NCBI GenBank assembly: GCA_965237525.1
Contig: CBDEFO010000007.1
Span: 32,001 to 96,000 of the forward strand
Source of the DNA: Candidatus Latescibacterota bacterium
GTDB lineage: Bacteria; Latescibacterota; CBDEFO01
Direction of reading: 5' to 3'
DNA length: 64,000 nucleotides
The notes below the pieces were generated by a model. The model did no database searches and had not been told where the DNA came from. It saw nothing but the letters and a program-made list of their open reading frames with translations. The position numbers and the translations under genes were made by a program. Positions 26,687 to 54,017 of the stretch are shown in pieces (the first letter of the stretch is position 1; each line of letters starts with the position of its first letter).

Positions 26687-26689
<3 letters not shown>

Positions 26690-26862
26690 GTAAGTAGACA
26701 GTAGCCCCCGATTGAGTTTCTCGGGGGTGGGCAGTAGACAGGGCAAAACCAAGTAGACAGCAAACAGCAAACAGTAGACAGGGAAGGCACTGCCACGTCC
26801 CACCCCATCCAAGTGCTTGTCCCCCTTACCAAGGGGGACCACAGGGGGTCCCAGTAGACGGG
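26687..26862 (+). repeat. AGTAGAC heptamer arrays interleaved with palindromes
   Basis: TAAGTAAGTAGACAGTAG, CAGTAGACAGGG, AAGTAGACAGCAAACAGCAAACAGTAGACAGGG; palindromes at 26705-26727 and 26820-26838. Confidence 0.8.
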
Positions 26863-26913
26863 GCACAGCCTCTCATCCCTGTATGCTGTCTTAATAGAAT
26901 CAGGGTAGAAGGG

Positions 26914-26950
26914 AAGCCCGGTGTTATCCAAAGCGCCGGGCTTTTTGTTT
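26914..26950 (+). terminator. Intrinsic terminator after groEL
   Basis: AAGCCCGGTG...CGCCGGGCTT stem followed by TTTGTTT. Confidence 0.75.
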
Positions 26951-26964
26951 GCCCGCAACTGGAC

Positions 26965-27030
26965 AGGACAGACAAGAATGTCCGTCCTACCAACATATTA
27001 ACTCTTGTGGGTCACACATTCCTGTCTGAC
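26965..27030. repeat. REP doublet, third (inverted) copy
   Basis: GGACAGACAAGAATGTCCGTCCTACC...GTGGGTCACACATTCCTGTCTGAC. Confidence 0.75.
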
Positions 27031-27052
27031 ACCGTTGAGGTCGATAGAATCA

Positions 27053-27195
27053 GAGATTGCTTCCCCCGGATAGATTCAATCGCAGGCGCTCGCAATGACG
27101 GTGTAGGGGGCTCGCATGAAAGCTATCGGCTTGAAATATGACATTGTCCACGCTGGGGTCATTGCGAGGGGGATGAAATCCCCCGAAGCAATCTC
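27053..27195. repeat. Inverted pair of GAGATTGCTTC...CTCGCAATGAC palindromic elements
   Basis: 27053-27099 and its reverse complement at 27158-27195. Confidence 0.8.
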
Positions 27196-27249
27196 GCTCT
27201 ATTTTGTACGAGAAATACAACCTTCCCGAATCACAAGTTAAAACTCTTG

Positions 27250-27278
27250 TTGACATTTACACTAAAGTTTTATATATT
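27250..27278 (+). promoter_or_regulatory. Sigma70 promoter, probably the ancestral prfB promoter
   Basis: TTGACA-17 bp-TATATT. Confidence 0.65.
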
Positions 27279-27402
27279 CACTGCAAATTTGTGCCTTTAG
27301 CGAGTCCCGACTTCTTATGAGCTATGGACAGGAGGATCACAAAAATACTTATTAAGATGTGACCCCTGTCACAAGCAAGATAAAGTTGATTTGGTATATT
27401 AA

Positions 27403-28921
27403 AAGCCTTGTGAAAAACCCTTAGATTCAGAAAGTAGTATAGAACAAGCATTGATAAAGCAGTTCCGATGTATTATATTATGTTATTGATAATATTATAC
27501 ATGGAGGAAACAATGACCCCACAAAAGCAGGAACAGACAAATCCGATGTTTCACTATTTTCAGATGGAGGATTTAGTTCCCGAGGATCATATCCTTCGTC
27601 AGATTGATGAGGCAGTTGATTTTTCATTTGTACGAGACGTTGTATCAGATTGTTATTGCCCTGACAATGGCAGACCCGGTATTGATCCTGAATTAGTTGT
27701 TCGAATGATCCTTATTGGCTATCTGTATAATTTGAGTGAGAATCGGCTCTGTCAGGAAGTGGGGATGCATGCGGCATATCGGTTGTTTTGTCATCAGACA
27801 TTTGATGATGCGGTTCCGGATAGGAGCACGATCAACAAGCTTCGCAATCACAAGTGGGCATCCAGTGGGTTGTTTGAACGGATAATGCGTCAGGTAGTCC
27901 AGTGTTGCATAGATGTCGGTGTTGTGAGCGGTAAACACCTTAGTGTCGACGGCACTCAGATACAAGCTGATGCTTCAGTGAAAAGTATTGAGCCGATAGA
28001 ACCCCCTTTTTCTCTTGATGATTATCTCAAGGGAATCGGTTTTGAAGGTGATAAGACAAAGGGTAGGTCCGGGCATCCTCAGGATAAAGACTTTCATGGT
28101 GAAAAGTGGACGAACCAAACACACCGTTCGACTACAGACCCCGACGCGCGCTTATACAGCAAATCGAAGGGCAAAGGGGCTTTTCTCTCGTTTATGGGCC
28201 ATGATCTGATCGACACAAAAAGCAGAGTAATCCTTGAGACTCAGGGCACGCAGGCGACAGGGACAGCAGAGCCCGAAAGTGCCCTTAAGATGGTAGATGA
28301 CCTTGAAACATAGACCATGCCCAAAGACATTCAGACACTTAGTGCCGATACCGGTTACGGTTCTGGTAATTTTATCGCTGATGTACTTGACCGGGGAATC
28401 ATACCCCATATTCCTCTGCGAGCCGATGAGAAGATTGAACCGATTCCTACATGGAAAAACAAGACAAATTCAGCACATATTCAGGCCGAACGGGATAGAA
28501 AAGTGCGAGAGGCGAAAGCCAGAAATCATGCACGGTCTATCTCATTAACAGCTGACTACAAACTCTCCCGGAGACTCCGTAAACGCAGTGAACATATCTT
28601 TGCTGAAGCCAGGCAACAACACGGTATGGGACGAGCCCGTTATAGAGGACCAGCCTCACTGAATGAACAGTTGAATCTTGTTGCAACAGTACAGAATCTC
28701 AAGAGGCTTGCATCTTTCATAAGAAGGGGGAAAGCGTCTATGTGTGCCCTGTCTGTCAAAGACAGTGCATCCTGTTCTTCAAACAGCTCCTGTTCCTTGC
28801 TGACCAGAACTCTGATAAGACTATTTTACTTATTCCACAGCAAAACGATACGATATGCTACTCTTTGACCCATAATCGGCGCTTCAGACGCTGCCTGGGA
28901 CATAACTATTTCACAAGGCTT
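27403..28921 (+). mobile_element. IS1182/IS5-like copy 5; transposase 27513-28868 has an internal TAG
   Basis: IRs intact; TTAA at 27399-27402 and 28922-28925; TAG at 28311-28313. Confidence 0.95.
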
Positions 28922-28943
28922 TTAAGTTGTGCTAATTTCCTAA

Positions 28944-30589
28944 CCCGAATAATTAACGAGAAAAGGCAGGGCATTAATTAAGGGATTGAATTGTATTATA
29001 GTTAGGTAGTATAATTACAAAAACAATCCCGAAAATTAAAGAGGCACTGCCATGAATGAAGATATACAAGTTTCGCTTAAGTTGAAAGACGTTTCTGGCA
29101 AGAAAGTGACTGTAGATTTCACCGGTGGAGATGTGACATCCGATGCTGGAGTCCTTGCTTTGAAAGAAGTTGCAAAGAAAATTGGGATCATAGAACACCT
29201 TGCAGAGGCTATAGGTGATGATCGTCATCAAAGCTATGTACAGCATCATATCGGGGAACTCCTGAATCAACGTATTTTTCAGATTATATGTGGTTATGAA
29301 GATACTAACGATTCAGATTATCTGAGGGCCGATCCTGGGTTCAAGGTCTCCTGCGACAGGCTCCCCTCTGAGGCCCATTTGGCAAGTCAGCCCACTATGA
29401 GTCGTTTTGAAAACTCCATCTGCTCCAAAGACCTCTACAAAATAGAAGAGGTATTCGTAGATCGGTTCATAGATTCATATGAAAAACCACCAAAGGGTAT
29501 CATTCTGGATATTGATGATACTGATGATATTACCCACGGCGCCCAACAGTTGCAATTGTTCAATGCTTACCACAATGACTACTGCTTTATGCCCCTTTTT
29601 ATCTTTGAGGGGAAAAGCGGTAAACTTATAACGAGCATCTTACGTCCTGGCAGACGACCTTGTGGCAGAGAAATTCGTGCGATAATCAAAAGATCATCAA
29701 AAGAATAAGAGCCGCCTGGCCCAAAGTGGGCATCATCATTCGTGGTGATTGTCACTTTGCTTCTTGTGAACTCTACCTGTGGTGCGAAAGCCATAATGTC
29801 CATTATCTCGTGGGTCTTTCAAAGAACGCCGTACTTAAAGTATACCCTGAATCTGCTCTGAAGACAGCACATCAGAGATATTCTGATTCTGGCAAGAAGG
29901 TACGTGTTTTCAAAGAAGTAGGCTATCAGGCTAGGAGCTGGCACAAACCAAGAAGAGTGATAATAATGGCCGAAGTCTCTGATATGGGCGAGAATCTCCG
30001 CTTTGTGGTCACCAGTCTGGAAAGCTCCCAACCATCGTTCCTCTATGAAACGGCCTACTGTGGCCGAGGACAGATGGAGAACTTTATCAAGGAGCACAAA
30101 GTCGCTCTCAAAAGTGGCCGTACATCGTGCCACAGCTTCCTGGCAAACAGTCTTCGCCTTATGCTTCACAGCGCCGCCTATGTTATTCTGCATAGGTTCA
30201 CAGAGAAAGCTCTTGCTGGCACCTCCTTTGCCAATGCTCAATTCGATACCATAAGGCTGCGATTACTCAAGATCGGGGCGGAAGTTCGGGAGCTAAAGAC
30301 TAAAGTGCATTTCATATTGCCCTCTTCCTACCCATTGAAAGATGTCTTTGCAACGATGTGCAATAAAATAGCTTTCATAACATAGAGTAAGACTTATCTG
30401 ATTTAATTACATAGAGATACTCTTTCACGCAAGGAATAAGCATGTCCTTTTCGGCACTATACGCCAAATCTGATCAGTATTCCAAAGATGCTTTGCCACT
30501 TGCTGTCGCCTTGCACCGCTCAAATATCCAGTTACCCTTTATTCTGAGGTCAAATTCATTTTTTAAACGAAGTTTATGAATTAATCGGG
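28944..30589 (+). mobile_element. IS1380-family element
   Basis: IRs CCCGAATAATT / AATTAATCGGG; CTAA at 28940-28943 and 30590-30593. Confidence 0.88.
29052..30385 (+). pseudogene. IS1380 transposase, frameshifted
   Basis: FTGGDVTSDAG, GYEDTND, ASQPTMSRFEN, LDIDDT, RGD, YCGRGQMENFIKE; one A short in the run 29688-29691. Confidence 0.88.
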
Positions 30590-30611
30590 CTAAAGACCGT
30601 AAGGAGGCAAA

Positions 30612-31698
30612 ATGGGAGACGAACTGCTGGAAAGTAAACTCGGAGAATGCAGGAAGAAACTGGACAATCTAAGGAGTTATCTTTGACTTAGGTTCTAAGG
30701 AGGAGGAAATATCCCGGTTAGAATCCAAAATGTCAGAGCCGAACTTCTGGAACGACAGAGAGGCAGCTCGAAAGACGATAGACCGCTTCAACGTCCTTAA
30801 GAAGCCCGTTTTGAAGTGGCGGACCTTAAACTCTGAGTACGAAGATCTGGAGGTGCTCTATCAGCTTGATGTTGAAAAGCACGAAGTGGAGGCGGAACTC
30901 GGTAAATTAGAAGATGGCATAGAGGAGTTAGAGCTCCAAAGGATGCTGGGCGGTCAGGACGACCCAAGGGACGCCATACTTACGATCCATCCTGGCGCGG
31001 GAGGGACCGAATCTTCCGACTGGGCCAATATGCTGATGAGGATGTACCTCAAATGGATTGAGAATCACGGCTTTAAAAGCAGCATTTTAGATATTCAGCC
31101 CGGGGACGAGGCAGGCATCAGAAACGCCACTATCGAAGTTAAAGGGGAACACGCCTACGGCTATCTCAAGGCCGAAGCGGGCGTGCATCGGCTCGTAAGG
31201 ATTTCTCCCTTCGACGCCAACAGCAGGAGACATACATCTTTTGCCTCCGTCTTTGTCTATCCCGAAGCCGACAGCGAAATCGAGGTAGACATAAACGACA
31301 AAGATCTTAAGATAGAGACCTTTCGCTCAAGCGGAGCAGGGGGCCAGCACGTCAACAAGACTGACTCTGCAATTAGGATAACTCATCTTCCGACTGGCAT
31401 TACAGTTCAGTGTCAGGCGGAAAGGTCTCAGCACAGGAACAAAAGCACGGCGATGAAGGTACTTATGTCGAGGCTCTATCAGCACTATAAGGAGGAGGAA
31501 AAAAAGAAGATGGAGAAGATAGAAAGCCAAAAAAAGAGCATAGAGTGGGGAAGTCAGATAAGATCTTACGTTTTCCATCCCTACAATATGGTCAAGGATC
31601 ACCGAACAGGGGTCGAGACGAGCAATACTCAATCTGTCATGGACGGAGAAATAGACGAGTTTATAAGGGAATATCTTATTCAGTACCCAAATGAGTAA
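30612..31698 (+). CDS. prfB: Peptide chain release factor 2 with programmed +1 frameshift
   Basis: ATG 30612; internal SD AGGAG then CTT TGA C (30681-30687); the +1 frame contains SPF and GGQ. Confidence 0.97.
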
Positions 31699-31744
31699 AC
31701 TGGTACTCCATACCTTTCACAATATAGATTTTCTAAACGAATCC

Positions 31745-31773
31745 TTGACTTTGTGTCAAGGTTTTCTTATATT
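31745..31773 (+). promoter_or_regulatory. Sigma70 promoter of lysS
   Basis: TTGACT-17 bp-TATATT. Confidence 0.6.
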
Positions 31774-31878
31774 TTATGGGCTTTAAGAGTCCCTAGTACT
31801 TGCACCATTCTGATCCGTCCGCATGGGGGTATCGAAGAACTTTTGGGCGCAAAACGAAGATTTTGACAGGAGACTGGA

Positions 31879-33375
31879 TTGAACGAAGAGAGGCACCTGA
31901 TAAAACAGAGGCTCGAAAAGTTATTGAAGATTAAGGAGAAAGGAGTAAATCCTTATCCGTACAGATTTGAAGTAACACACTTATCCTCTGAAGTTATTAG
32001 GAACTCAGAAAATCTGGAGACGTCAAAATCAGCAGTGGCAGTAGCAGGAAGGTTGATGTCTATCAGAAGCCATGGCAAGACCGGGTTTGGACACATTCAG
32101 GACGAAGACGGAAAGATTCAGATATACTTCCGCAAGGACACCCTGGGCGACGATCAGTTCGGTCTGTATGAGCTCTTTGACATAGGCGATATTGTAGGCA
32201 TAAGAGGAAAGGTCTTTAAAACCCGCACGGGAGAGATAACCTTATCGGCTCAGGAAGTGGAGCTTCTCTGCAAATCCATCCGCCCTCTGCCCATTCCCAA
32301 GGATAAGATCCAAGATGGAAGGAGAATAGTCTATGACGAATTCTCCGACAAGGAGCAAAGATACCGTCAACGCTACCTGGATGTGATACTAAACCCCGAC
32401 GTTCGGGAGGTCTTCTTAAAGCGGGATCGGATCATCTGGGAGTTGGAAAAGTATCTCCGCGAAAAGGGGTTTGTAAGGATGGAAACACCGATACTTCAGC
32501 CGCTCTACGGCGGAGCATCGGCAAGACCCTTTACCACCTATCACAACGCCCTTGGTCTTACGCTCTACCTTCGAATCTCCGACGAACTCTATCTCAAACG
32601 TCTCATTGTGGGGGGCTACGGTAAGGTCTACGAGTTTTGCCAGGATTTCCGAAACGAGGGGATGGATCGGGAGCATAATCCAGAATTCACACTTTTGGAA
32701 CTATATCTGGCTTACGCGGACTACAACGATATCATGGAGATAGCTGAGGAGATGATCTCTCAGACTGCGGAGGAGGTAGTTGGCTCCATGCAGGTCGAAT
32801 ACCAGGGCCAAAAGATAGATTTTTCGCCTCCCTGGAATAGAGTCAAGATGTCTGACGCGATTAGGGAGCATACGGGACTCGATCTATTTGGCTCTTCAGA
32901 GGGGGACTTGAAGAGTATTTGTAAGGACCTGAATGTGGAGGTAGATTCGAGCATAGGAGTCGGTAAGATGATAGATAAGATCTTCGACCAGTACGTCAAA
33001 GATCACCTCGTACAGCCCACGTTTATAACGGACTATCCCCTGGAGACGGCGCCCCTTGCCAAAAGGCACAGAGATGACCCCCTCTTAGCAGAGCGCTTCG
33101 AGCCTTTTGTCTGTGGAATGGAGATAGGAAACGCCTTTTCGGAACTGAATGACCCGATAGACCAAAAAAAGAGGTTCGAAGAGCAGATGAGGCTGAAAGA
33201 GCAGGGCGATGAGGAGGCTCAAGTCCTGGACGAGGACTATATAAAGGCGATGGAGTACGGGATGCCTCCCACTGGAGGATTGGGAATAAGCATAGATAGA
33301 TTGGTGATGTTGCTCACAGACTCTCCATCTATAAGAGACGTTATCTTATTTCCTCAGATGAGGCCCGAAGGGTAA
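31879..33375 (+). CDS. lysS: Lysine--tRNA ligase (class II)
   Basis: YRQRYLD, GGASARPF, FRNEG..HNPEFT, GMPPTGGLG. Confidence 0.97.
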   Translation: MNEERHLIKQRLEKLLKIKEKGVNPYPYRFEVTHLSSEVIRNSENLETSKSAVAVAGRLMSIRSHGKTGFGHIQDEDGKIQIYFRKDTLGDDQFGLYELFDIGDIVGIRGKVFKTRTGEITLSAQEVELLCKSIRPLPIPKDKIQDGRRIVYDEFSDKEQRYRQRYLDVILNPDVREVFLKRDRIIWELEKYLREKGFVRMETPILQPLYGGASARPFTTYHNALGLTLYLRISDELYLKRLIVGGYGKVYEFCQDFRNEGMDREHNPEFTLLELYLAYADYNDIMEIAEEMISQTAEEVVGSMQVEYQGQKIDFSPPWNRVKMSDAIREHTGLDLFGSSEGDLKSICKDLNVEVDSSIGVGKMIDKIFDQYVKDHLVQPTFITDYPLETAPLAKRHRDDPLLAERFEPFVCGMEIGNAFSELNDPIDQKKRFEEQMRLKEQGDEEAQVLDEDYIKAMEYGMPPTGGLGISIDRLVMLLTDSPSIRDVILFPQMRPEG

Positions 33376-33391
33376 ACAAGTAGACAGTAGC

Positions 33392-34695
33392 GGTTGAATA
33401 TCAAATGAAATCGGTGCACCTAATTTGATCTTTGTTTAGAGTATTAGTAGATTAAGTTGAGTTGATTGTCTTAACTTTAATCTACGGAGTCCTATGGACA
33501 AAGAGAGATTGGCCGTATTAAGACAAGAAGTCAACGAGATGTATTTTAAGAAAGAAATGTCAAAGCGAGAAGTTATCAAACAAGCGAGAGTTTCCAATGA
33601 TTTCGTTACGGCTTGGACTAAATCTCTGGATCAGGATTTTGCCATGGATAATCGGGGTTGGCCAAAAGGAAAAAGGCGAAAATTGGCTAAAGTTGACGAA
33701 CAGAGAATCAAAGAGATTTACCATAGCTTAGAGGACGATCCTTATCAGTTCTATTCAGGAGCCACTGTTATTGAACAAGAATGGAGGAATCGATATTCTA
33801 GCACCCCTCCTCCGTCGTTGCCGACTATCGGCAGAATGCTTTCAGATTTAGGACTTTCCCAGAGAAGGAAGAAAGGTAAAAACAAGGGTGCATCTCGTTA
33901 TCTTTGTTATCCAGAGTATACCATTTACTATCTTTTAGGAGGCAGAGTCCTAGAATCAGACTTTATTGGTAAAAAGTATCTTACCGGCAGAACTGAGCCG
34001 GTCAACTTCGTTGGATTTTCCTTTTTAAGAAAGAGCCTAAGTTAAGGTATTTTCGGCGGGTTGACGGTCAAACAGCAACTAACTTTATCGAGAAGTGTCA
34101 GTCTTTCTTTGACAGGTTTGAAAAACCAGATTTCGTTAAGGTGGACAATTGCTCGGCGACTATTGGCAGTGTTTCAGGTAAAAGGAATGTCAGCAAAGCA
34201 ATGCAGTTTCTCTTGAAAAATCAAGTGATTCCGATATTTGCCGTTCCCAGAAGGCCCTTTTCTCAAGCATCTATAGAAGGCAACAATTCTGTATTTTCAA
34301 GGAAGTTCTGGAACAGAATTCAGTTCAAAAGCTTACAAGAAGTTGATCAGAAGTTAGAATGGTTTAATCTTTCATCACAGAGATACACCGGCTACCGTCC
34401 ACCTAAGCAAGAGAAGTCAAACGAGAAAGATTTCATTCCCAAGACCTATTTTATCAGACAAGTCAAACAGGACACAGAACAGACAGATAAAGCCTTTATC
34501 GATGTCCTAAATGAGAAAGTATCTCTTCCCTCCTCTTACACCAACTACTTTGTCCTGGCTGAATGGAACCTAAAAGAAGAACAATTATACATCCATTTTG
34601 AAAAAGAACAGAAACCAAAGATTGTCGAAAACCTATCATTCAAGATCAATCAAAGATCGAAAGAGAAGTGCACCGATTTCATTTGATAAATAACC
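33392..34695 (+). mobile_element. IS-B copy 2 (IS481-like); transposase 33494-34686 frameshifted
   Basis: 28-bp IRs; two extra T at 34022-34026 relative to copy 1. Confidence 0.9.
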
Positions 34696-34769
34696 AGTAG
34701 TCAGTAAACAGGGAAAGGCAAAGACAGTAGGGGTGAGGTTACCTCGCCCAGTAGACAAGAGCACCTCAT

Positions 34770-35159
34770 ATGGACGCCGCGGACAAAATATTAAACGATG
34801 CCTGGCAAGAGGCCAGAAAAGGAATTTGAGGAAAGCAAGAGAGCCGATAATTATATTCTGATGCGAGATGCCTGTGAGAAGGCGTGGGGGGCGATTGTTC
34901 AAGCGAGTAAACACCCTCTTTCAAAAGATGGACGTTACGCCCCTTCCCAAGAGCCACAGGGATAGAAGAATAAGGATACGGGAGTTAGAAAAGGAAAAAC
35001 GAACTTATCAAGGAAAAGGCGCTCTTTGACAGATTTATGGCAAGAGACTACTTCTTGTATCAGAAAGCCTTCTAGGATGAGGATCTTGTCCCTTAGGAGA
35101 TCGAAAACGAGTTTTCAAGGGTCGAGGGGTTTATAAGGGATGTTGAGGAGATGGAATAA
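34770..35159 (+). pseudogene. PaREP1/HEPN-like gene remnant
   Basis: RDACEKAWGAIVQA, PKSHRDRR; several frameshifts and TAG stops. Confidence 0.55.
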
Positions 35160-35234
35160 CGCCTTTTTAAACCCTTGAACGAATATGAGTATCGGGTTGA
35201 AATAGTAGATGGCATACAGGGATGGGAGGCGGTG

Positions 35235-35272
35235 CCCTGTCTACTGTCTACTGTCTACTGTCTACTTACTTA
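35235..35272 (-). repeat. Heptamer array (GTCTACT)4 immediately before the lolC/E start
   Basis: CCCTGTCTACTGTCTACTGTCTACTGTCTACTTACTTA then G ATG. Confidence 0.9.
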
Positions 35273-35273
35273 G

Positions 35274-36515
35274 ATGTCCTATGAATTCTTCATAGCCAAA
35301 AGATACCTCAAGTCCAAACGCAAGACGGGTTTTATATCGGCTGTAGCATACATATCTGTGGGTGGCGTGGCAGTGGGCGTGGCCGCTCTGATCATAACCT
35401 TATCCATAATGAACGGATTTTCTTCGGAGATCAGAAATAGGTTTATAGGCTGGGACGCCCATTTGAGGGTTGTAGCATACTATGCGGGGGCGATCGAAGA
35501 TTATGAAGGGATAGAAAAGGAGATCGAAAAGACAGATGATGTTATGGGAGTCTCCCCGTACGTCTATGGGAAGGCAGTAATCCTAAGAAAGGGGAAACCC
35601 CATATCTCCGACGGAGTACACGTAAAGGGTGTGGCCGAAGAAGGCATAAAAAGGACATCGAATATAGAGCAAAATATAATTGATGGAGATCTTGATCTCG
35701 GCAAGTTAGACAAGTCCAATATATATGGCATCACAATAGGATATGCGCTTGCAAATAGGCTAAAGGTGGTAATTGAGGATACTGTCTTCATCTTCAACCC
35801 TCAGGGTCTGGGAGCGGGTGCTTCGTTTGGAACACCTAAGTATTATGCATTTAGAATAAGCGGGCTCTTTGAAACCGGAATTTACGATTTAGACTCATCC
35901 TGGGTTATCATTTCCATAGAATCGGCTCAACGGATATTTGAACTTAAAGATGGCGTAACGGGTGTTGAGGTCAAGCTGGATGATATGGACCTGACCGACG
36001 ATGTGGCGAACAAGATAAGAGAAAAGCTGAGCTATCCCTACAACGTCATAACCTGGAATCAACTCAACAGGACACTATACAATTGGATGGAGATAGAAAA
36101 GAGGGCGTCATTTGTAGTCTTGAGCCTTATAATCGTAGTGGCGGCCTTCAGTATAACGAGCACTCTGGTTATGATTGTCCTTGAAAAGACGAAGGAGATT
36201 GGAATTTTGAAATCTATGGGAGCTACGTCCCGAAGCATAAAGAAGATATTTGTGTTTAACGGATTGTCCGTCGGAACACTGGGAATTTTTATAGGCAATA
36301 TAATAGGATATACCCTCTGTTGGGCTCAGGAAAAGTTTAAGATTGTGTCGCTCCCTGCCGATATTTATATTATAAGCGCTGTTCCGGTCGATGTGCGATT
36401 GATGGATTTCGTCTTAATATCCACAGCGGCTTTGTTCATCTGCCTTATGGCCTCTGTCTACCCGGCGTTTAAGGCATCGTCTCTGGACCCTGTAGAGGCT
36501 ATAAGATACGAGTGA
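35274..36515 (+). CDS. Lipoprotein-releasing ABC permease LolC/E
   Basis: FIAKRYL, SIMNGF, EIGILKSMGA, DPVEAIRYE. Confidence 0.93.
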   Translation: MSYEFFIAKRYLKSKRKTGFISAVAYISVGGVAVGVAALIITLSIMNGFSSEIRNRFIGWDAHLRVVAYYAGAIEDYEGIEKEIEKTDDVMGVSPYVYGKAVILRKGKPHISDGVHVKGVAEEGIKRTSNIEQNIIDGDLDLGKLDKSNIYGITIGYALANRLKVVIEDTVFIFNPQGLGAGASFGTPKYYAFRISGLFETGIYDLDSSWVIISIESAQRIFELKDGVTGVEVKLDDMDLTDDVANKIREKLSYPYNVITWNQLNRTLYNWMEIEKRASFVVLSLIIVVAAFSITSTLVMIVLEKTKEIGILKSMGATSRSIKKIFVFNGLSVGTLGIFIGNIIGYTLCWAQEKFKIVSLPADIYIISAVPVDVRLMDFVLISTAALFICLMASVYPAFKASSLDPVEAIRYE

Positions 36516-36546
36516 TAAATAAAGATCGTTAGCCAGAGCGCGCTAA

Positions 36547-38856: not shown

Positions 38857-38913
38857 TTAAAAAAGAAATACAATAAAATCGCAATCGATGTAATTTCTTC
38901 CGGGAGCGTCCAG

Positions 38914-41391: not shown

Positions 41392-41413
41392 CGGAGGCTC
41401 TGAAAGGGTTCAG

Positions 41414-45496: not shown

Positions 45497-45556
45497 GCAT
45501 TTTCAGTTTTTCCCGCCTCCTATTTCAAAGACGGAGTATGCGAAAGCGAGGCTTGT

Positions 45557-47863
45557 ATGAAGGGCCGGATACTTATATTTACAATATCAATGATCTTGAT
45601 CACAGAGATCTTTTTTCCTTCCCTATCTCTATCTCAGTTAGGGTCTACAAGAATCTCTAAGATCAGCGTTGAGGGCAACGTCCGCTCAAACGAATCTTTA
45701 ATTGTGAGCGCATCGGGACTACGGCATGGGCAGTATGTTACGCGTGAGGATATCCGGGACGCGATACGGGATCTCTACGCTTTGGGCCTCTTCCACGATA
45801 TAAAGGTCCTTAAAGAGGAAGATGAAAACGGAGAAACGGTGCTGACGTTAGAAGTAAAAGAATATCCAGCGCTCAAGGAGCTCAGGTTCGAGGGGAACGA
45901 TAAGATAAAGGATAAGGACCTAGAAAAGACCGTAGGGTTTATAAAGGAACAGGTTATAAGCCCCAAGGATTTAAAGGACGCCGAAATAAAGATAAGATCA
46001 ATGTATGAGGATAAGGGATACCTCCTGGCAGAAGTAGATCATAATCTATTCAAGTCGGGCGAACTCGGAGAGATTATACTCGGCTTCAATATCCGCGAAG
46101 GGGTCAAGGTGCAGGTCAAAAGGATAGGGATATTTGGGAATGAGAAAATTAACGATTCTGACATTAGCAAGCAGATGGAGATCAAAGAGGACAGATGGTG
46201 GAGGGGAGGCGACTTCAAAAGGGATGTGTACAGAGAAGACCTCAGGAAGATAGAGATCTTTTACAGGAGCAATGGCTACAGGGACGCTGAGATACTGCGT
46301 GACAGCCTCTACTATGATGGGACTAGGGAGGGCCTGTACATAGATATTTACGTCCAGGAGGGGACACTATACCGATTCGGAGAGGTCACGTGGGAGGGGA
46401 ATACATTTATCAGCAACGATGAGATCTCAAAGCAGGTGGTTGCAAAAAGAGGACAGTCTTACGAGGAGTTTAAATACCTGATGACGCGCCAGAACATATC
46501 CTCAGCGTATCAGGAGACCGGCTATCTCAACATCAGAGTTATCCCCGAAATTGTAGATCTGGAAGGAAAGGTAAACATACACTTTAAGATCCTGGAAGGC
46601 AATCCTTCAAGGGTTAAAATCGTCAAGATTAAAGGGAATACCAAGACGAAAGAAAAGGTAATACGAAGAGAACTCTCCGTCAAGCCAGGACAGGTCTTTA
46701 GACGTTCAGAACTGGAGAGGAGCGTACGGGACATATATATCCTCGGATACTTCAAAAACGTTGAGCCCAAGCACGAAGTATTAGAAAACGGGGACGTAAA
46801 CATAGAGTTTGACGTGGAGGAAAGGCACACAGGGACGGCGTCCATGGGTGCGGGATTCAGCGAAAGAGATAGACTTGTGGGAACCATAGGTCTATCGGTA
46901 CCCAACTTTCTGGGCAACGGTCAAAAGCTCGACTTCAACTGGGATTTCGGAACCAGAAGAGAACTTCTAAGGATAGGATTTACAGAGCCGTGGCTCTTTG
47001 ACACGCCTACCTCAGGATCGTTTAACATATTCAAGAGCAAAAGCCAGTTCTTCAGCAACGGTACAGATGAATTCGATCTGAAGCGGCAGGGTGTCTCGGT
47101 GTCGATGGGCAGGAAACTCGGATGGCCCGATAGCTTCTCAAGGGGCGTGATAAGATACAGGTTCGAGGAAGAAAGGTTCGGTAATTTCTCAGCGGAATAC
47201 ACAGGGACCTTTAAAGATAGAAAACCTACCAAAACGGCTACCTTGAGCGCAACTTATATCAGGGACAGCCGCGATCTTCCCCTCTTTCCCACAAAGGGCT
47301 CTATAGTCTCGTACACTCCGGAGTTTGGAGGCGAGTTCCTCGGTGGCGACGCCGATTACTACAAGCATTTTTTAGATGGCAATTTCTTCTTTGGCACACT
47401 CTGGAAGTTCGTGCTAAACGTCAGAACAAGGGTCGGGTTCGTCAAGACATTTGCGGACGACATAGATAACATCCCGTTTACCGAGAAGTTTACACCGGGA
47501 GGAATTGACATAGTAGATGGCATGATCAGGGGCTACTCCGACAGATCTGTGGGACCAAGAGAGGACGGATTTAGACAGGGAGGTAATTCGATGTTGATCT
47601 TCAACATAGAATATCGGTTCCCCGTAGTCGATCAGCAGATGTACGGGATATTCTTCGCCGACGCTGGAAACGCCTGGAAACATCCTTCTGATCTGGACAT
47701 TGGAAGCCTCAAACGTTCCGCAGGCTTCGGCATAAGGTTCATGGCTCCCATAATAGGCTTGATCGGATTCGACTTTGCCTACGGATTCGACAGGGAAGAA
47801 GTGGACGGTGCGCTGCCCGAGTGGAAGACACACTTCCAGTTTGGTCCACAACTGCAGTATTAG
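45557..47863 (+). CDS. bamA: Outer membrane protein assembly factor
   Basis: POTRA repeats (GN..T..VIRRE), IRGY motif, C-terminal barrel. Confidence 0.95.
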   Translation: MKGRILIFTISMILITEIFFPSLSLSQLGSTRISKISVEGNVRSNESLIVSASGLRHGQYVTREDIRDAIRDLYALGLFHDIKVLKEEDENGETVLTLEVKEYPALKELRFEGNDKIKDKDLEKTVGFIKEQVISPKDLKDAEIKIRSMYEDKGYLLAEVDHNLFKSGELGEIILGFNIREGVKVQVKRIGIFGNEKINDSDISKQMEIKEDRWWRGGDFKRDVYREDLRKIEIFYRSNGYRDAEILRDSLYYDGTREGLYIDIYVQEGTLYRFGEVTWEGNTFISNDEISKQVVAKRGQSYEEFKYLMTRQNISSAYQETGYLNIRVIPEIVDLEGKVNIHFKILEGNPSRVKIVKIKGNTKTKEKVIRRELSVKPGQVFRRSELERSVRDIYILGYFKNVEPKHEVLENGDVNIEFDVEERHTGTASMGAGFSERDRLVGTIGLSVPNFLGNGQKLDFNWDFGTRRELLRIGFTEPWLFDTPTSGSFNIFKSKSQFFSNGTDEFDLKRQGVSVSMGRKLGWPDSFSRGVIRYRFEEERFGNFSAEYTGTFKDRKPTKTATLSATYIRDSRDLPLFPTKGSIVSYTPEFGGEFLGGDADYYKHFLDGNFFFGTLWKFVLNVRTRVGFVKTFADDIDNIPFTEKFTPGGIDIVDGMIRGYSDRSVGPREDGFRQGGNSMLIFNIEYRFPVVDQQMYGIFFADAGNAWKHPSDLDIGSLKRSAGFGIRFMAPIIGLIGFDFAYGFDREEVDGALPEWKTHFQFGPQLQY

Positions 47864-47995
47864 AAAATAGTGCTGTCTGGGATGGATGGATGAAGTGGCG
47901 GCAACAAACCACGAAGTGATCTGACGACATAACACACCTTTTTCGCAAGACAATTCCTCAATGCTTTTGGGGACCCCCTCAAGGAGAGAATCGCT

Positions 47996-48565
47996 ATGCG
48001 TTCCAAAGTTCTTTTAAAAAGGTCTATCTTTACCACCGCTGTGGCGTCTACCGTTGTTCTGTTCTGGGCTGTTTTCTCCCATGCCGCTGATCTGAAGGTT
48101 GCCTACATCAACTCGGAGCGCATACTCTCAGACTATAAGGCCCTTGCTGAAGTTCAGCAAGAACTGGACAGATACAAGGATCAGTGGGAGAAAGAGGCCG
48201 AAAAGAAGCAGAGGGAGTTAGAACGTCTCAAGGAGGAATATGAGGTACAGCGGTTGCTTATGAGCGAGGAGAAGAGAAAAGAGCTTGAAAGGGATGGGGA
48301 GGCTAAGGCCCAGGCCCTTCAGAAGTTCGTGGATGAGTTCCTCTCCCCAGGGGGGAAGTATGCTCAAAAGAACATAGAGCTCTCCAAGCCGATCTACGAT
48401 GAGATAAACTCCTTAATAAAGAATATAGGGGAAGAGGAGGACTACGACTTTATCTTCGACTCACCGGGCCTGCTCTTCGCAAAACCCCAATATGACATAA
48501 CCGACCGGATATTAGAGGAACTGGACAAAGAGATCCCCACGTCCAAGGAGTCCCAATCAGAATAG
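47996..48565 (+). CDS. skp: OmpH/Skp chaperone
   Basis: KVAYIN, coiled coil, YDFIFD, DITDRIL. Confidence 0.9.
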   Translation: MRSKVLLKRSIFTTAVASTVVLFWAVFSHAADLKVAYINSERILSDYKALAEVQQELDRYKDQWEKEAEKKQRELERLKEEYEVQRLLMSEEKRKELERDGEAKAQALQKFVDEFLSPGGKYAQKNIELSKPIYDEINSLIKNIGEEEDYDFIFDSPGLLFAKPQYDITDRILEELDKEIPTSKESQSE

Positions 48566-48587
48566 GACTTAAAAATCGTCTTAGCCC

Positions 48588-49670
48588 ATGCAAATGAGAT
48601 TAGACCAAATCGTCAGCCTGGTCGGGGGAGAGATCCTGGGAGATGGCGGCACACTAATATCGGGAGTCGCGGGCATAGATGACGCCGAACAAGGCGATAT
48701 TACCTTCCTTTCCAATCCCCAATATCGCCGTTATCTCAAATCCACAAAGGCCTCTGCCTTGATCCTCCCGTCCACATCTTCTTCCCCGATTGAATCTATC
48801 GGGGATAGCCCCCATAAAGATGAAGATTCCATTTCTATCCCCGTTATCCTTTCTGAAAACCCCTATTACTGCTTCGCCCAGGTTATGCGACTCTTCCACA
48901 CACAGGAGGATGAATATCCCAAGGAGATACACCTCACTGCTCAAGTGGCCAAGACCGCCCAGATCGGCGCTGGTATATATATAGGTCCTCACGTCTGTGT
49001 GGAAGAGGGAGCAAAGATCGAAGATGGAGTTAGAATCTGTGCAAATTCCATCATAGGAAAAAACTGCAAAATAGGCCAGGGGACTCTGATATATCCAAAC
49101 GTGACGATCTACAAGGAAATACAGATCGGAAAGGACGTGATAATACACTCCGGAGCTGTTATAGGGAGCGACGGTTTCGGGTTTGCCCCGGATAATGGCA
49201 AATATCACAAGGTCCCGCAGGTAGGTACTGTGATCATCGAAGATGACGCTGAGATAGGAGCTAATACCACGATAGATCGTGCAACAATGGGCGTTACACG
49301 GATAGGAAAAGGAACCAAGATCGACAACCTGGTTCAGATAGCCCACAATGTGGAGATAGCTGCGGACACCGTTATTGCCGCCCAGGCAGGGGTTTCTGGG
49401 AGTACAAAGATCGGGAGAAAGTGCCAGATTGGTGGCCAAGTTGGCTTCGTAGGTCATATTGAATTGGGAGACGAATCGATAGTAGGTGCGCAATCGGGAA
49501 TAGCCAAATCGTTCCCCGAAAAGTCGTTCATAACAGGAAGTCCCGCAAGATCAATAGAAATAGTCAGAAAGACAGAGGCCTATCAGAGCAAGATCCCCGA
49601 CCTTTTAAAGAGAGTCAAGCAGTTGGAAAAACAGATGGAAGAACTCAAAGAGGAGTTGAGGGACGGATAA
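48588..49670 (+). CDS. lpxD: UDP-3-O-acylglucosamine N-acyltransferase
   Basis: [28 protein letters not shown]; hexapeptide repeats. Confidence 0.96.
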
Positions 49671-49671
49671 G

Positions 49672-51081
49672 ATGCTCAAGAATCAGCGCACTATAGCAAA
49701 AGAGGTATCGTGCTCTGGCACGGGTCTGCACACCGGCTCGGAAGTCAAGGCTACGTTTAAACCGTCAGGAATCAATACAGGTGTGACGTTTGTGCGCACA
49801 GATCTTCCTATGAATCCCGAGATTCCAGCGGATATAGACCACGTAGTAGATACATCAAGGGGGACAACCATAGGAATTGACAACGCCAAAGTTCACACAG
49901 TAGAGCACCTCCTGGCCGCTCTGGCAGGATTGGGAATAGACAACGTCACAGTAGAGATAAGTTCCAGCGAGCCCCCGGTCGGCGACGGCAGCGCGATGAT
50001 CTTTGTTGAGTCCCTGCAGAAGGCAGGATTTGTGGAGCAGGACTCTCCTAAAGACTACATCATCATAGAGGAGATGATCAGATACTCCGAGCCCGATGGC
50101 GGTCCCGAATTGGTGGTTTTACCCTCAGACGACTTCAAGGTCACCTTTATGAGCGCTCCTGACACGCCGGCTGTAGAAGCCCAATATACAGGTATGTTCT
50201 CACTGGAGGACGAGTTCATAGTGGACTACGCACCGGCGCGCACCTTTTGTCTGTTGAGTGAACTTAAGACCCTAAGAGAGCAAAACCTCATCAGGGGAGG
50301 TAGCCTCTCTAACGCCCTTGTCATCGCGGATGTCACTAGTAGTGAGGAGGAACTCGACGAACTCAAGGATCTTTTTGGAATTACCGAGCAAGTAACGGTG
50401 GGCCAGAACGGTCTCATCAACGGAGTGGAACTTCGCTTCCCCAACGAATTCTGTCGCCACAAAGTCCTCGACCTTACGGGAGACCTCTTTCTTTTGGGTG
50501 CTCCTATCCGGGGGCACGTCATGGCGGTCAGCTCAGGGCACAGGTCGAACATAGAATTTGCTACAATGATCAGAAAAATCTATGAGAAAAGAAAGATAGC
50601 CAAAGAGTACGACCACGCCAAGAGCGACAAATTCCTCTTCGACATAAGAGCCATCCGAAAGATTATGCCTCATCGCTATCCCTTCCTCATGATCGACAGA
50701 ATAATATATATGCTCCCAGGGGAAAAGGTGGTGGGTATAAAGAACGTCACGATCAACGAACAGTTCTTCACAGGACACTTCCCGACCGATCCTGTTATGC
50801 CAGCTGTCCTTCAGATAGAGGCTATGGCTCAAGTGGGGGGCATATTATTCCTGAGCACAGTGGACGATCCCGAAAAGAAACTGGTCTATTTCTTGGGAGT
50901 CGATAAGGCTAAGTTCAGAAAGCCTGTAGTTCCGGGAGATCAAATTCGCTTTGAGCTAGACATGATCAGGCTTCGGCGCACAACCTGCAAGATGCAGGGC
51001 AAAGCCTGTGTGGACGGAGATTTAGTAGCTGAAGCCGAGCTTACGGCAATGCTCGTGGATAAAGAAAATCCTCCTCACTGA
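49672..51081 (+). CDS. lpxC-fabZ: Bifunctional LpxC-FabZ fusion
   Basis: GTGLHTG, TVEHLLA, RHKVLD, then PHRYPFL and GHFP. Confidence 0.95.
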   Translation: MLKNQRTIAKEVSCSGTGLHTGSEVKATFKPSGINTGVTFVRTDLPMNPEIPADIDHVVDTSRGTTIGIDNAKVHTVEHLLAALAGLGIDNVTVEISSSEPPVGDGSAMIFVESLQKAGFVEQDSPKDYIIIEEMIRYSEPDGGPELVVLPSDDFKVTFMSAPDTPAVEAQYTGMFSLEDEFIVDYAPARTFCLLSELKTLREQNLIRGGSLSNALVIADVTSSEEELDELKDLFGITEQVTVGQNGLINGVELRFPNEFCRHKVLDLTGDLFLLGAPIRGHVMAVSSGHRSNIEFATMIRKIYEKRKIAKEYDHAKSDKFLFDIRAIRKIMPHRYPFLMIDRIIYMLPGEKVVGIKNVTINEQFFTGHFPTDPVMPAVLQIEAMAQVGGILFLSTVDDPEKKLVYFLGVDKAKFRKPVVPGDQIRFELDMIRLRRTTCKMQGKACVDGDLVAEAELTAMLVDKENPPH

Positions 51082-51169
51082 ACCTCCCTATTGCCCTGAT
51101 TCATCCTACCGCTTATCGTAAAGGCGGGGTAACCCCGTCCTCCACTTGATTCATCATCAGAGGCGAGAA

Positions 51170-51961
51170 TTGGAAATACACAAGTTTGCCCAATTAAGCC
51201 CCCAAGCCCAGTTGGACCAGGATGTCTCTATAGGTCCCTTCTCCCTGATCGAAGCGGGAGTAACCATAGGATCAGGGACTAATATAGGCTCGAATGTTCT
51301 GATAGCCAAAGGCTCCATAATAGGCCGGGATTGTTCCATCCATCACGGCGCTGTAGTAGGTTCTGTACCCCAGGATTTGAAATTTCACGGCGAAGAGACG
51401 ACGCTGGAAATGGGAGACAGGACGGTTATAAGAGAATACGCCACACTAAACCGCGGGACGTCGCACCGGATGAAGACCAGAATTGGGAGTGATTGCCTCC
51501 TAATGGCGTACGTCCATGTGGCTCACGACTGCATAATCAAAGACAACGTCGTCATTTCTAACTGCACGCAGATGGCAGGTCACGTGACTGTGGAAGACTA
51601 TGTCAGGCTGTCGGGATGCGTGCTGATTCAACAATTCAGCAGGATAGGACAACATAGCTTCGTATCCGGGGGGTGCCGCATAACTAAGGATGTGCCACCG
51701 TTCATAAAAGCCTCCGGAGATCCGCCAAGTCCCGTCGGACTCAACGTCGGCAAGGGACAGACCGGTCCTGTGGGATTGGAAATGCACGGTATATCGAAGG
51801 AGGCTGTAGAGATTTTGAAGAAAGCATACAAGATCATCTTCAGGTCTGATATGAACACGACGCAGGCTATAGAGACAGTGAAAGCAGAGATCGAACAGAC
51901 AGAAGAGGTGAAGGCTCTTATAGAGTTTATAGAAAGCAGCGAAAGAGGAATAATAAAATAG
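51170..51961 (+). CDS. lpxA: UDP-GlcNAc O-acyltransferase
   Basis: PQDLKF, IREY, HVAHDC, AGHV, KDVPPF; TTG start inferred. Confidence 0.93.
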   Translation: MEIHKFAQLSPQAQLDQDVSIGPFSLIEAGVTIGSGTNIGSNVLIAKGSIIGRDCSIHHGAVVGSVPQDLKFHGEETTLEMGDRTVIREYATLNRGTSHRMKTRIGSDCLLMAYVHVAHDCIIKDNVVISNCTQMAGHVTVEDYVRLSGCVLIQQFSRIGQHSFVSGGCRITKDVPPFIKASGDPPSPVGLNVGKGQTGPVGLEMHGISKEAVEILKKAYKIIFRSDMNTTQAIETVKAEIEQTEEVKALIEFIESSERGIIK

Positions 51962-52019
51962 TAAACAGGGTATCCTCTCTCATCCGCGTATGCTATCTAC
52001 TTGCTCTGGAGGTGCTAAG

Positions 52020-52844
52020 ATGAGCCGGTTAAGAGTTGTCAGCCAAGAGAGAAAAAGAGAAATAGAAAGAAGAATCGATACGGAAAGACTCTTTGCGGTT
52101 ATCGGCACTACAGGCAATATAACAGATCAGGTCGCAGGGATCGCCGATGGACTCTATGAGGGGGGAGTTTCAACTTCTGAGATCACCTGCAGAGCCGCAA
52201 CGTGGTTGAATCACTTGGAAGCCCTTCAAAACTATAAGGATACAAAAAATCCTGACGTAATAGTCGCTGTCGGGACAAACACGGATATTTTTTCGGTCCA
52301 CCAGGCGATGCAAAACGGAGCAGAAGTGATTGTAGCTTCCCACGGACTTATGCCATATTCAAATCGCGCCGCCGTACCTCCCGAAAGGAGATCTCATCTA
52401 ACCGATCTGGAGACGTTCATTCAGAATCACGAGGAGGAGATCAAAGGGCTATACAAAGAGGAATTGGGAGAAGTTGACGCTTACGCCCTGATGATGGACC
52501 CGATAATGTACGTCAGCACGCGCGGGGGCATTATCATACCTGCTTCGAGCCACGCTCCGGACGGGCTGAAAGCCGTGAAGATGCGCGGTGCGAACTACCA
52601 GAAGTTGTATCCGACTCAGAGATACACGCCAGCTGAACTTGCCGAGACGTTCAAGGCGGTGACTCCGTTCGACAACTTAAGAGTCGTACTGACAGGCGGG
52701 CTGGATAAGGACAACATGGTGCCCTGGCTTAAAGTCCCCTACGTCATAGCAGCAGGTATGAGCTATCTGGCGAAGGGGACCCCAAGAGAGATTAGGGAAA
52801 AAGCGAAAAGCTCAAGAGAGATAGTAAAATCTTTAGAGGAATAG
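52020..52844 (+). CDS. Divergent KDPG/KHG aldolase (Eda-like)
   Basis: EITCR, AVGT, KLYP Schiff-base position, TGG; convergent with kdgK. Confidence 0.65.
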   Translation: MSRLRVVSQERKREIERRIDTERLFAVIGTTGNITDQVAGIADGLYEGGVSTSEITCRAATWLNHLEALQNYKDTKNPDVIVAVGTNTDIFSVHQAMQNGAEVIVASHGLMPYSNRAAVPPERRSHLTDLETFIQNHEEEIKGLYKEELGEVDAYALMMDPIMYVSTRGGIIIPASSHAPDGLKAVKMRGANYQKLYPTQRYTPAELAETFKAVTPFDNLRVVLTGGLDKDNMVPWLKVPYVIAAGMSYLAKGTPREIREKAKSSREIVKSLEE

Positions 52845-52856
52845 ACCTCCAGAAGA

Positions 52857-52908
52857 TAGTAGACAGTTGTCAGGGCCACCTCCTCCCTTCCCTGTTTGCT
52901 GTCTACTG
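52857..52908. repeat. Inverted heptamer-array hairpin between convergent genes
   Basis: TAGTAGACAGTTGTCAGGG...CCCTGTTTGCTGTCTACTG. Confidence 0.75.
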
Positions 52909-52910
52909 AT

Positions 52911-54017
52911 TTATCGCCTGGCTCTTACCCCCCCTCCTTTCTGAGCGCGGGCGATTTCTTTTTCGATCTCTGTCTGTGTCACCATCGTCGTGTCCCCAGG
53001 GGTTAGTTGCACCAGAGCGCCGTGTGCCGCGCCCCACTCGACCGCCTCTTTCAGACCCTTTCCCCCAAGCAGAGCAGCAGCAGTCCCGGAGACGAAGGAA
53101 TCGCCTCCGCCCGTTCGGTCTTTGATCTGGACGCCATCCCGCTGTGTTGCTTGATACAACTTCCGTCCCGATACGGAATACAAAATGGCGCCCCAGTTAA
53201 TCGCATCTGCAGAGATGGCCCCACGAAGCGTGGTTCCGATTAACTTGAGATTGGGAAAATCCTCGGCCACCCTTACCACCATCTTTTCGTAGGCTTCTAT
53301 CTTCAGGCTGGTGTAGTCCTGGCCCACCTCCTCTATCTCGTAGCCCAACGCCGCCTGGAAATCCTCCTCATTTCCGACGAGAAAATCTACGTACTGCACA
53401 AGTTCCCTATTGATACTTTGTGCCTTCTTCTGATCGGGCTGGAGACTCGATCTGTAGTTCAGATCAAAAGATACAAATGTGCCGGCCTCCCTTGCCGCCA
53501 TTACAGCCTCCTTTGCCACCTCGGGGGCCGTATCGGATATTAGGGTATATATCCCGCCTGTATGGAACCACCGGACGCCCCTGTGGGAGAAGAGTCCACT
53601 CCAATCTACGTCTCCCCCTTTCAACTGGCGGGCTGAGGTGTGCGCCCTGTAGTACTCGGTCACCGACGGCAGCAGTCCCTTACCGCTCCAGGTGAAGTTT
53701 ATGCCGTTGCACACCATTCCGATGCCGTCGAAATTCAACCAGACGATGTGGCTTGTATCTACGCCCGCTTCCCTCAGCTGAGCTTCAATATTTCGCCCTA
53801 CGCCGTCGTCCACCAGAGCGGTGACCACAGATGTTCTCATGCCGAAAGAGTAGCTCAATCCTTCAGCGACGTTCAGCTCACCGCCCCCGTGCCATGCCTT
53901 GAAAGTTCTGGACTTTCGTGTTGGAACATCCCCCGGATCCAATCTCAACATGACTTCACCGAGCGAGACCGCATCGTAGTCGCACTGTTCATCAGATCTG
54001 ATCGTCAATTCTGCCAT
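52911..54017 (-). CDS. kdgK: PfkB-family 2-dehydro-3-deoxygluconokinase
   Basis: GEVMLRL, GGGELNVA, FDLNYR, DRTGGGDSF. Confidence 0.85.
   Translation of the reverse strand: MAELTIRSDEQCDYDAVSLGEVMLRLDPGDVPTRKSRTFKAWHGGGELNVAEGLSYSFGMRTSVVTALVDDGVGRNIEAQLREAGVDTSHIVWLNFDGIGMVCNGINFTWSGKGLLPSVTEYYRAHTSARQLKGGDVDWSGLFSHRGVRWFHTGGIYTLISDTAPEVAKEAVMAAREAGTFVSFDLNYRSSLQPDQKKAQSINRELVQYVDFLVGNEEDFQAALGYEIEEVGQDYTSLKIEAYEKMVVRVAEDFPNLKLIGTTLRGAISADAINWGAILYSVSGRKLYQATQRDGVQIKDRTGGGDSFVSGTAAALLGGKGLKEAVEWGAAHGALVQLTPGDTTMVTQTEIEKEIARAQKGGGVRARR

Follow-up and report, generated by a model that had tools for sequence, protein, structure and literature searches.

AGTAGAC heptamer arrays in a Candidatus Latescibacterota genome as the inverted ends of short intergenic elements, with a probable origin in four-helix-bundle gene cassettes

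The window described here is a stretch of 64,000 nt from a Candidatus Latescibacterota bacterium (assembly GCA_965237525.1, contig CBDEFO010000007.1, positions 32,001 to 96,000 of the forward strand), in which arrays of the heptamer AGTAGAC border several protein-coding genes. The labels of these genes (groEL, lysS, lolC/E, lpxA, an Eda-like gene, pfkB/kdgK and a motB-like gene) are backed by Pfam and NCBIfam. The arrays form the two ends, inverted relative to each other, of short hairpin elements that lie between genes. The interior of these elements is exchangeable and collects repetitive extragenic palindrome (REP)-type palindromes, an insertion sequence (IS) here called IS-B, and scraps of genes. 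The source genome of the window (G000; 4.58 Mb, 8 contigs, completeness 96.6%) is compared below with a second genome of the same genus (G001; ~96.5% identity to G000, 2.8 of 4.54 Mb examined). The features concerned, in window coordinates, are the following:

26693..26783, plus strand: left-arm cluster after the groEL stop, made of AGTAGAC/AGCAAAC units and interrupted by a palindrome (from sequence and folding)
26705-26727: the interrupting palindrome, of the CCCCGAT..ATCGGGG type
26853..26891, plus strand: second small palindromic element, with a left unit, a purine/pyrimidine core and the right arm CCCTGTATGCTGTCT
31879..33375, plus strand: lysS, the host gene upstream (Pfam tRNA-synt_2)
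33379..33391, plus strand: outer left arm that follows the lysS stop, interrupted by IS-B and intact in G001
33392..34695, plus strand: IS-B, 1304 bp, with 28-bp inverted ends and a transposase split into two open reading frames (ORFs)
34696..34713, plus strand: remainder of the lysS left arm past IS-B, two units and AGGG
34727..34749, plus strand: GTAG-tagged REP-type hairpin, cargo
34770..35159, plus strand: broken DUF5618/PaREP1-like ORF, cargo, present once in the genome (weak matches below cut-off)
35204..35221, plus strand: local left arm, which makes a 63-nt palindrome with the lolC arm
35235..35266, minus strand: right arm, CCCT and four GTCTACT units, ending 7 nt ahead of the lolC/E ATG, which has no Shine-Dalgarno (SD) sequence
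35274..36515, plus strand: lolC/E-type permease, the host gene downstream (Pfam FtsX/MacB_PCD)
51960..52001, no strand: complete 42-nt element between lpxA and the Eda-like gene, its arm overlapping the lpxA stop; found in G001 too
52858..52907, no strand: complete 50-nt element where the stops of the Eda-like gene and kdgK converge
9146..9165, plus strand: degenerate arm 18 nt ahead of the motB-like start, pyrimidine-rich on the mRNA and adjoining an IS-B end

Every motif quoted in a first-pass annotation of this DNA is found at its position. The groEL stop (26689) is followed by an arm from 26693 and the lysS stop (33375) by one from 33379, the arm at 51960 overlaps the lpxA stop, the arm of the Eda-like gene lies at 52858, and that of kdgK, on the minus strand, ends at 52907. 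Four reverse-complement units (35239-35266) stand ahead of the lolC/E ATG (35274), and homologues align with this protein from residue 1-3. The same annotation counted seven arms out of seven with one polarity. The polarity holds, but the cases are not seven independent ones, because the Eda and kdgK arms are the two arms of a single 50-nt palindrome at convergent stops. The lpxA arm has a partner, absent from that list, 18 nt ahead of the start of the Eda-like gene, whose own GGAGG stays outside the element. The motB arm is present, but it is degenerate and a GAGG separates it from the ATG. The motB-like ORF (8717-9127, 136 aa) matches only the N-terminal part of MotB profiles and adjoins the IS-B end.

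An 18-bp inverted match reported between 26687-26704 and 35255-35272 is exact. This 18-mer has 6 genome copies and is therefore a mark of the family at large, which rules out a specific groEL-lolC pairing through it. The element at 26853..26891 is an 88% inverted match to 35207-35246. Between lysS and lolC/E the cargo (~1.9 kb) consists, as proposed, of IS-B, a GTAG-type REP and a broken ORF, and the absence of an SD at lolC is also confirmed; looping the cargo out would place the lysS stop 3+7 = 10 nt from the lolC ATG, and not the ~8 nt first given. The segment 35204-35266 also forms a palindrome by itself (-26.8 kcal/mol). Elsewhere in the window, 19566-19666 and 13513-13620 are near-identical spacer blocks with a degenerate arm, a core and CAGACA..TGTCTG palindromes.

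Genome-wide, the search word for arms, AGTAGACAG, has 499 copies in G000 against ~35 expected at uniform base use; they form 388 clusters, 54 of them inside called genes, and the heptamer is the commonest exact 7-mer doublet of the genome (75 of 344). Nine of these words lie antisense in the first 150 nt of called genes, where they read as a stop-free LSTVYC peptide. Genes were called with our own dicodon model (4436 genes, those scoring ≥20 used), so individual start sites are possibly wrong. Polarity was counted with a slightly degenerate arm pattern, for arms ≤30 nt from a gene end. By this count 248 arms point into the spacer and 20 out of it (p 3e-51), which excludes random orientation; 171 follow stops and 77 precede starts. 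A position after a stop and a reversed position before a start are one geometry, because both mean pointing away from the adjoining gene. The arms read AGTAGAC inwards, and therefore the gene touching an element ends or starts there, with no need for a strand-specific function. Strand-specific polarity as a signal in itself is thus rejected in favor of an inward geometry, which holds at convergent stops too.

The unit is an imperfect palindrome, since arms close to one another mostly face each other: a spacing of ≤250 nt is found for 42/117 inward pairs of neighbouring arms and 2/116 outward pairs. The inward pairs ≤300 nt number 84 (median 94 nt), with terminal inverted repeats present, and share a layout in which heptamer units and AGGG lead into a short core or other repeats, followed by CCCT and reversed units. 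Lone arm clusters are largely unpaired in predicted folds, where pairing runs from arm to arm. The AGTAGAC unit contains no GGG run, and hence no G-tracts of quadruplex type. Four control words of like composition give inward:outward counts of 2:3, 1:3, 4:1 and 3:0, against 193:10 for the heptamer. Two other repeat words of G000 share the inward bias (32:5 and 25:2), so the bias is not special to AGTAGAC. The stop-side signal is partly built in, because the arm contains TAG: it supplies or overlaps the stop in 64/175 stop-side cases, the 111 others being independent of that. Arms are equally common at convergent (37/548) and tandem stops (134/2055; p 0.85) and are depleted at divergent starts (7/646 vs 70/2055; p 0.001), and an SD of its own is found at 66/99 arm-adjacent starts, compared with a background of 1825/2607 (70%).

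The contents of these spacers turn over. Among 1150 orthologous spacers of G000 and G001, arms occur in both genomes in 114, in G000 only in 27 and in G001 only in 29, a discordance that is partly a pattern-threshold effect. Lengths differ by ≥20 nt in 58/166 arm-bearing spacers vs 134/669 arm-free ones (p 8e-5), and by a multiple of 7 in 11/166 and 13/669, respectively. The comparison of lysS-lolC with relatives that the first-pass annotation called for finds a spacer of 621 nt and free of IS-B in G001, and the cargo turnover that it anticipated is seen at two further sites: the 50-nt eda-kdgK element is fully replaced by unrelated repeats in G001, and the contents of a site downstream of a gene that we take to be xerD-like alternate between the two genomes. 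In G001 the groEL and prfB-lysS-lolC regions are ~80 kb apart and mutually inverted (compare 24753-26689 in the window); the G000 junction of these regions is packed with IS copies (27468-30385).

This xerD site suggests where the elements come from. In G001 its 541-nt spacer holds, between AGTAGAC arms, the only TIGR02436 (four-helix-bundle) match, broken by a stop; a 40-residue piece of this relic gives weak matches to PF05635 (E 0.004) and bAvd (E 0.039). Avd is the accessory protein of diversity-generating retroelements. The orthologous site of G000 measures 112 nt and has REP-type hairpins flanked by the outer left arm and the right end, both of which are retained. Because the gene sits between AGTAGAC arms in one genome while the other keeps the outer ends around other repeats, we read the elements as gene-less derivatives of a mobile, heptamer-armed four-helix-bundle (TIGR02436/PF05635) cassette, with a probability of roughly 0.6. 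No TIGR02436/PF05635 gene lies between arms in G000, so the copies of the window are derivatives and not full cassettes.

The exact doublet occurs in G000 and G001 only, of 31 genomes of the phylum searched, and TIGR02436 in 52/151 genomes of the phylum. Beyond the phylum, the matches listed include inward pairs of the same heptamer in records labelled Acidobacteria, Nitrospirae, Chloroflexi and others. In unrelated phyla 124 loci were listed, of which 105 were scored and 19 left out for short flanks; among these listed matches an opposed partner lies on the inner side in 66/105 and on the outer side in 0/105. Two of the loci in other phyla carry a four-helix-bundle-like ORF, recognised by eye, just inside the array. 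PF05635 has 13 matches in 4/5 heptamer-carrying genomes; as judged by eye, 9 of these loci have inverted arms on both sides, 3 have one arm (2 of them at contig ends) and 1 is a misread. Each has a heptamer of its own, and the arms abut the stop and the start of the neighbouring genes, presumably yebC-ruvC, ybaB-recR, nuoD-nuoH, rpoA-rplQ and pyk-mutL. An independent set of 80 metagenome four-helix-bundle loci, reduced to 69 by leaving out 11 with short flanks, was judged against a shuffle null, which replaced a cross-locus null (23/69 loci positive) that is too strict because the loci share heptamers. Significant inverted arms are present at 43/69 loci; 32 of these 43 show a 7-nt periodicity on both sides, and 34 are tandem, 3 convergent and 6 unclear.

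Several points weigh against derivation from such a cassette. Target duplication at element ends is near chance (5, 3, 0, 1, 0 and 0 of 84 for 2, 3, 4, 5, 6 and 8 nt), the ends being fuzzy, and none of the 13 discordant spacers listed gives a clean empty/filled site, so that mobility is deduced from turnover alone. Within the genus a single degraded copy in G001 carries the link, and at the xerD site gain and loss of the gene are both possible. Neither a four-helix-bundle gene nor a relic of one (TIGR02436/PF05635) was found in the 96.6% of G000 that is represented. The five genomes were chosen for carrying the heptamer and so are no neutral sample. Finally, arms from the same element are no better paired than arms swapped between elements (84 pairs; p 0.68 and 0.22). 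As candidate partner genes, neither four-helix-bundle nor GxxExxY genes were found in G000.

A history compatible with these observations would be one in which copies survive where they are harmless. In line with this, the outer arm often supplies or overlaps the stop, an existing SD usually stays outside the element, and the promoter spacers of divergent genes are avoided. At an SD-less ATG lying against an arm (~1 in 6 tandem starts, lysS-lolC included), arm-arm pairing on the mRNA may fold the cargo away, leaving a predicted ~10 nt from stop to start and making the insertion tolerable. Copying would most likely proceed by a copy-in step that acts in trans on these arms, a four-helix-bundle protein or a host enzyme being the putative actor.

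The first-pass annotation assigned to the elements a different role, in which the arms are under selection for pairing on the mRNA, so as to loop the cargo out and keep neighbouring genes coupled by termination-reinitiation. Its element family with inverted termini is supported by the arm pairs described above; loop-out as the general function of that family is not, and we consider selection for such a function unlikely. In its favor, the distance from arm to start is bimodal: 15/99 starts lie ≤10 nt away, all SD-less and tandem, and the other starts are 12-40 nt away, most of them with an SD that the element does not include. Two of the 15 resemble chance pattern matches, the absence of an SD is partly built in where the pyrimidine-rich arm fills the SD window, and the tandem arrangement is not significant against divergent starts (p 0.59). 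In the 621-nt lysS-lolC spacer of G001 the predicted equilibrium fold pairs the lolC arm with the lysS arm (mean P 0.80), in a duplex of -34.3 vs -17.0 with the local partner. In G000 the predicted pairing probability of the lolC arm is 0.38 with the 13-nt remnant upstream of IS-B and 0.03 with the local partner, although the groEL arm would bind the lolC arm better (-27.5) than the lysS remnant does (-19.7). When the pair span is limited to 100-200 nt, a rough stand-in for co-transcriptional folding, the lolC arm takes local partners. Twelve other relatives have lysS next to lolC; the two genes share a 4-nt overlap in 2 of them and are 10-12 nt apart in 2 more, but the gap is 47-466 nt in 8/12.

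The metagenome cassettes bear on loop-out coupling too. The start of the downstream gene is ≤12 nt from the arm, with an SD in 1 case, at 23/34 tandem loci, whereas 19/29 of the cassette genes have their own SD. With the stem removed, the median distance from stop to start is 8 nt (n 24, SD-less), a sample that leaves out 2 loci lacking an upstream ORF, 1 with an SD and 7 with starts >16 nt from the arm. A downstream SD is found at 6/34, a weak difference from the 12/30 of other ORFs in the same loci (p 0.057). The tests of pairing itself are negative. The 84 pairs show no arm-arm covariation, and an excess of G·U on the sense strand, considered as a signature, is not seen in G000 elements or cassettes: G·U:A·C mismatches number 29:46 in 51 G000 elements (the opposite trend, p 0.064) and 60:52 in 34 cassettes. 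A partner arm stands at the upstream stop for 7/13 SD-less close starts vs 21/73 more distant, mostly SD-bearing starts (p 0.11). A split ribosome-binding site repositioned by loop-out was likewise considered and is not enriched, an SD being found in 5/13 upstream tails of G000 compared with 235/390 overlapping pairs and a background of 495/1339, and in 9/24 cassette upstream tails vs 29% (p 0.18). Because arms are equally common at convergent stops, the SD is kept at most arm-adjacent starts and these tests are negative, the view that coupling is what the family is for in G000 is not supported. As the reason why insertions are tolerated at a minority of SD-less junctions, as modelled for lysS-lolC, loop-out coupling is plausible. 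The idea is thereby narrowed to a defined set of junctions and can be tested on the hundreds of sites present here.

Considerably less probable is that the pyrimidine-rich arm before the start acts, single-stranded, as a protein-binding site (putatively for ribosomal protein S1, a cold-shock or the four-helix-bundle protein) that replaces the SD, with pairing incidental. A role of this kind has been suggested for the TAACTGA repeats that immediately precede SD-less starts (PMC4679880), and for 6/13 SD-less close starts of G000 the upstream stop lacks a partner arm. The excess of stop-side over start-side arms, the SD kept at most arm-adjacent starts and the inverted arm pairs found across phyla all speak against it.

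An ordinary GTAG-tagged REP/REPIN-like family copied by a REP-associated tyrosine transposase (RAYT), at most a 3' mRNA stabiliser and with heptamer runs that arise from slippage, is equally hard to sustain. The outer ends do contain GTAG, inside AGTAGAC; copy number changes in steps of 7, many other REP families occupy the same spacers, and the tandem and convergent location near 3' ends is that of REPs (PMC3733652). Against this, single arms have no short stem next to the tag, and cassettes whose heptamers contain no GTAG share the layout. A RAYT partner was also sought in G000, and its PF01797 (Y1_Tnp) search gave 0 matches; yet 205 words of the GTAGGG[GC]C type occur there without a RAYT.

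That the arms are DNA recombination ends, between which cargo is swapped by homologous or site-specific exchange, agrees with the replaced interior between conserved outer ends at the xerD site and with the higher spacer turnover, but is improbable given that no dedicated recombinase or recurring cargo family is found among inward pairs 250-3000 nt apart, that eda-kdgK lost its arms and interior together, and that IS-B uses its own ends to move and has arms among its insertion sites.

IS-B is cargo moved by its own ends, since its insertion at its target word split the lysS arm, where a 6-bp target duplication is recognisable (5/6 matching). Among the genes inside inward pairs ≤3 kb no transposase with the same termini is found, except IS-B with its own ends. 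G000 has ~50 near-identical copies (52 right ends, 48 left ends), the consensus of the 6-bp duplication being NNTA[G/C/A]N, and a one-ORF form is found at C7:180083-181273. The matches to IS481, IS630 and IS21 are sub-threshold, no HMM scoring over cut-off. An arm is carried by 11/52 right-end flanks, compared with 1.6% expected for intergenic target words, and at AGTAG/TCTAC targets 11/17 copies lie in arms vs 11% (p 2e-7). This excess may reflect a landing preference or a survival bias; as a landing site for an active IS, the arms would help to shape where mobile DNA accumulates. The broken ORF of the lysS-lolC cargo gives, in its G001 copy, sub-threshold matches to DUF5618 (E 0.003) and PaREP1 (E 0.048).

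Other mobile DNA is nested in the same region. Copies of a DUF772/DDE IS (143 blast matches) lie at 2504-3904, 10185-11585, 12012-13412, 13866-15266 and 27468-28868; this IS inserts repeatedly inside IS-B at two fixed offsets, after ~nt 49 and 341, and the nested stacks are absent from syntenic G001 DNA. The CCCGAT..ATCGGG palindrome, with 618 pattern matches genome-wide, inserts into heptamer arms and other repeats, and its presence differs between G000 and G001.

A broader proposal, which we advance as speculation with the odds clearly against it, is that the heptamer-armed elements belong to a widespread mobile class of 'mRNA intervening sequences', aimed at operon stop/start junctions and moved with the help of an Avd-like four-helix-bundle protein, the element and any later cargo (REPs, IS, gene scraps) being hidden in a long hairpin and ribosomes re-initiating on the SD-less downstream gene. 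If true, this would account for the surplus of 7-base repeats in bacteria, give a function to the orphan TIGR02436 family and make lysS-lolC a case in which 1.9 kb is folded away.

Polarised heptamer repeats are known in several bacteria, without a consensus on their origin and function. The first-pass annotation knew of no mechanism for such polarity. None is established, but the polarity itself is in print for other heptamers. GGGAATC in Xanthomonas and GGGGA(C/T)T in Nostoc form intergenic arrays ≤50 bp after stops (sense) or before starts (antisense), often overlapping the stop; the GGGAATC repeats occur as inverted pairs, are under-represented between divergent genes and form 70-75 convergent pairs per Xanthomonas genome (PMC4692102). 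The AGTAGAC arrays share with them the 7-nt intergenic unit, the stop/start polarity, the inverted pairs and the scarcity between divergent genes. By contrast, GGGAATC repeats are read as G-quadruplex formers, for which AGTAGAC lacks the G-tracts, and their loci are more stable than controls, whereas AGTAGAC spacers are less stable; the available portion of that account does not mention 'four helix' (PMC4692102). The TAACTGA repeats of Beggiatoaceae, Cyanobacteria and Bacteroidetes are direct repeats oriented toward starts, often in place of the SD, for which protein binding is proposed (PMC4679880). They resemble AGTAGAC as heptamer arrays toward starts that are sporadic across phyla, but are mostly start-side direct repeats, while AGTAGAC is predominantly stop-side and has inverted pairs as its unit.

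GTAG REPs and REPINs are short palindromic extragenic repeats, often inverted dimers near 3' ends (PMC3733652). The AGTAGAC elements are also short, palindromic and extragenic, lie in mosaic spacers and end in GTAG; REP units have a short 5-13 bp stem-loop after the tag (PMC3733652), in place of which AGTAGAC has tandem heptamer arms, and G000 has no RAYT match. The ORF-bearing intervening sequence (IVS) of 23S rRNA (S23p) comprises a terminal stem, a four-helix-bundle ORF and variable tandem heptamers upstream of it (PMC4990558). It is like the heptamer cassettes in placing an inverted stem around a four-helix-bundle ORF, but its location is an rRNA gene and RNase III excises it (PMC4990558), whereas the window elements lie between protein genes and carry no such ORF. 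The single 23S gene of G000 (C8:1627996-1631145) has no heptamer arm array. It measures 3150 nt against a model of 2925 positions, with an apparent extra stretch, by eye, at ~nt 1280-1410 that is arm-free.

In the literature searched, with subscription journals and supplementary repeat tables largely outside its scope, no general account ties four-helix-bundle genes to heptamer arms and no proposal of loop-out coupling was found. Close relatives of the window elements are the heptamer-armed four-helix-bundle cassettes, with the same inward arms abutting the host stop and start and, in G001 and in records labelled Acidobacteria, the identical heptamer; the copies described here differ in that almost all are gene-less and hold repeats or IS instead. 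The G000/G001 pair provides a direct link between the two, with the same arms around a four-helix-bundle gene in one genome and around other repeats in its relative. The polarity of heptamers was thus known already; what appears to be new, as judged from the literature searched, is their tie to four-helix-bundle cassettes, seen both at one orthologous site and across taxa.

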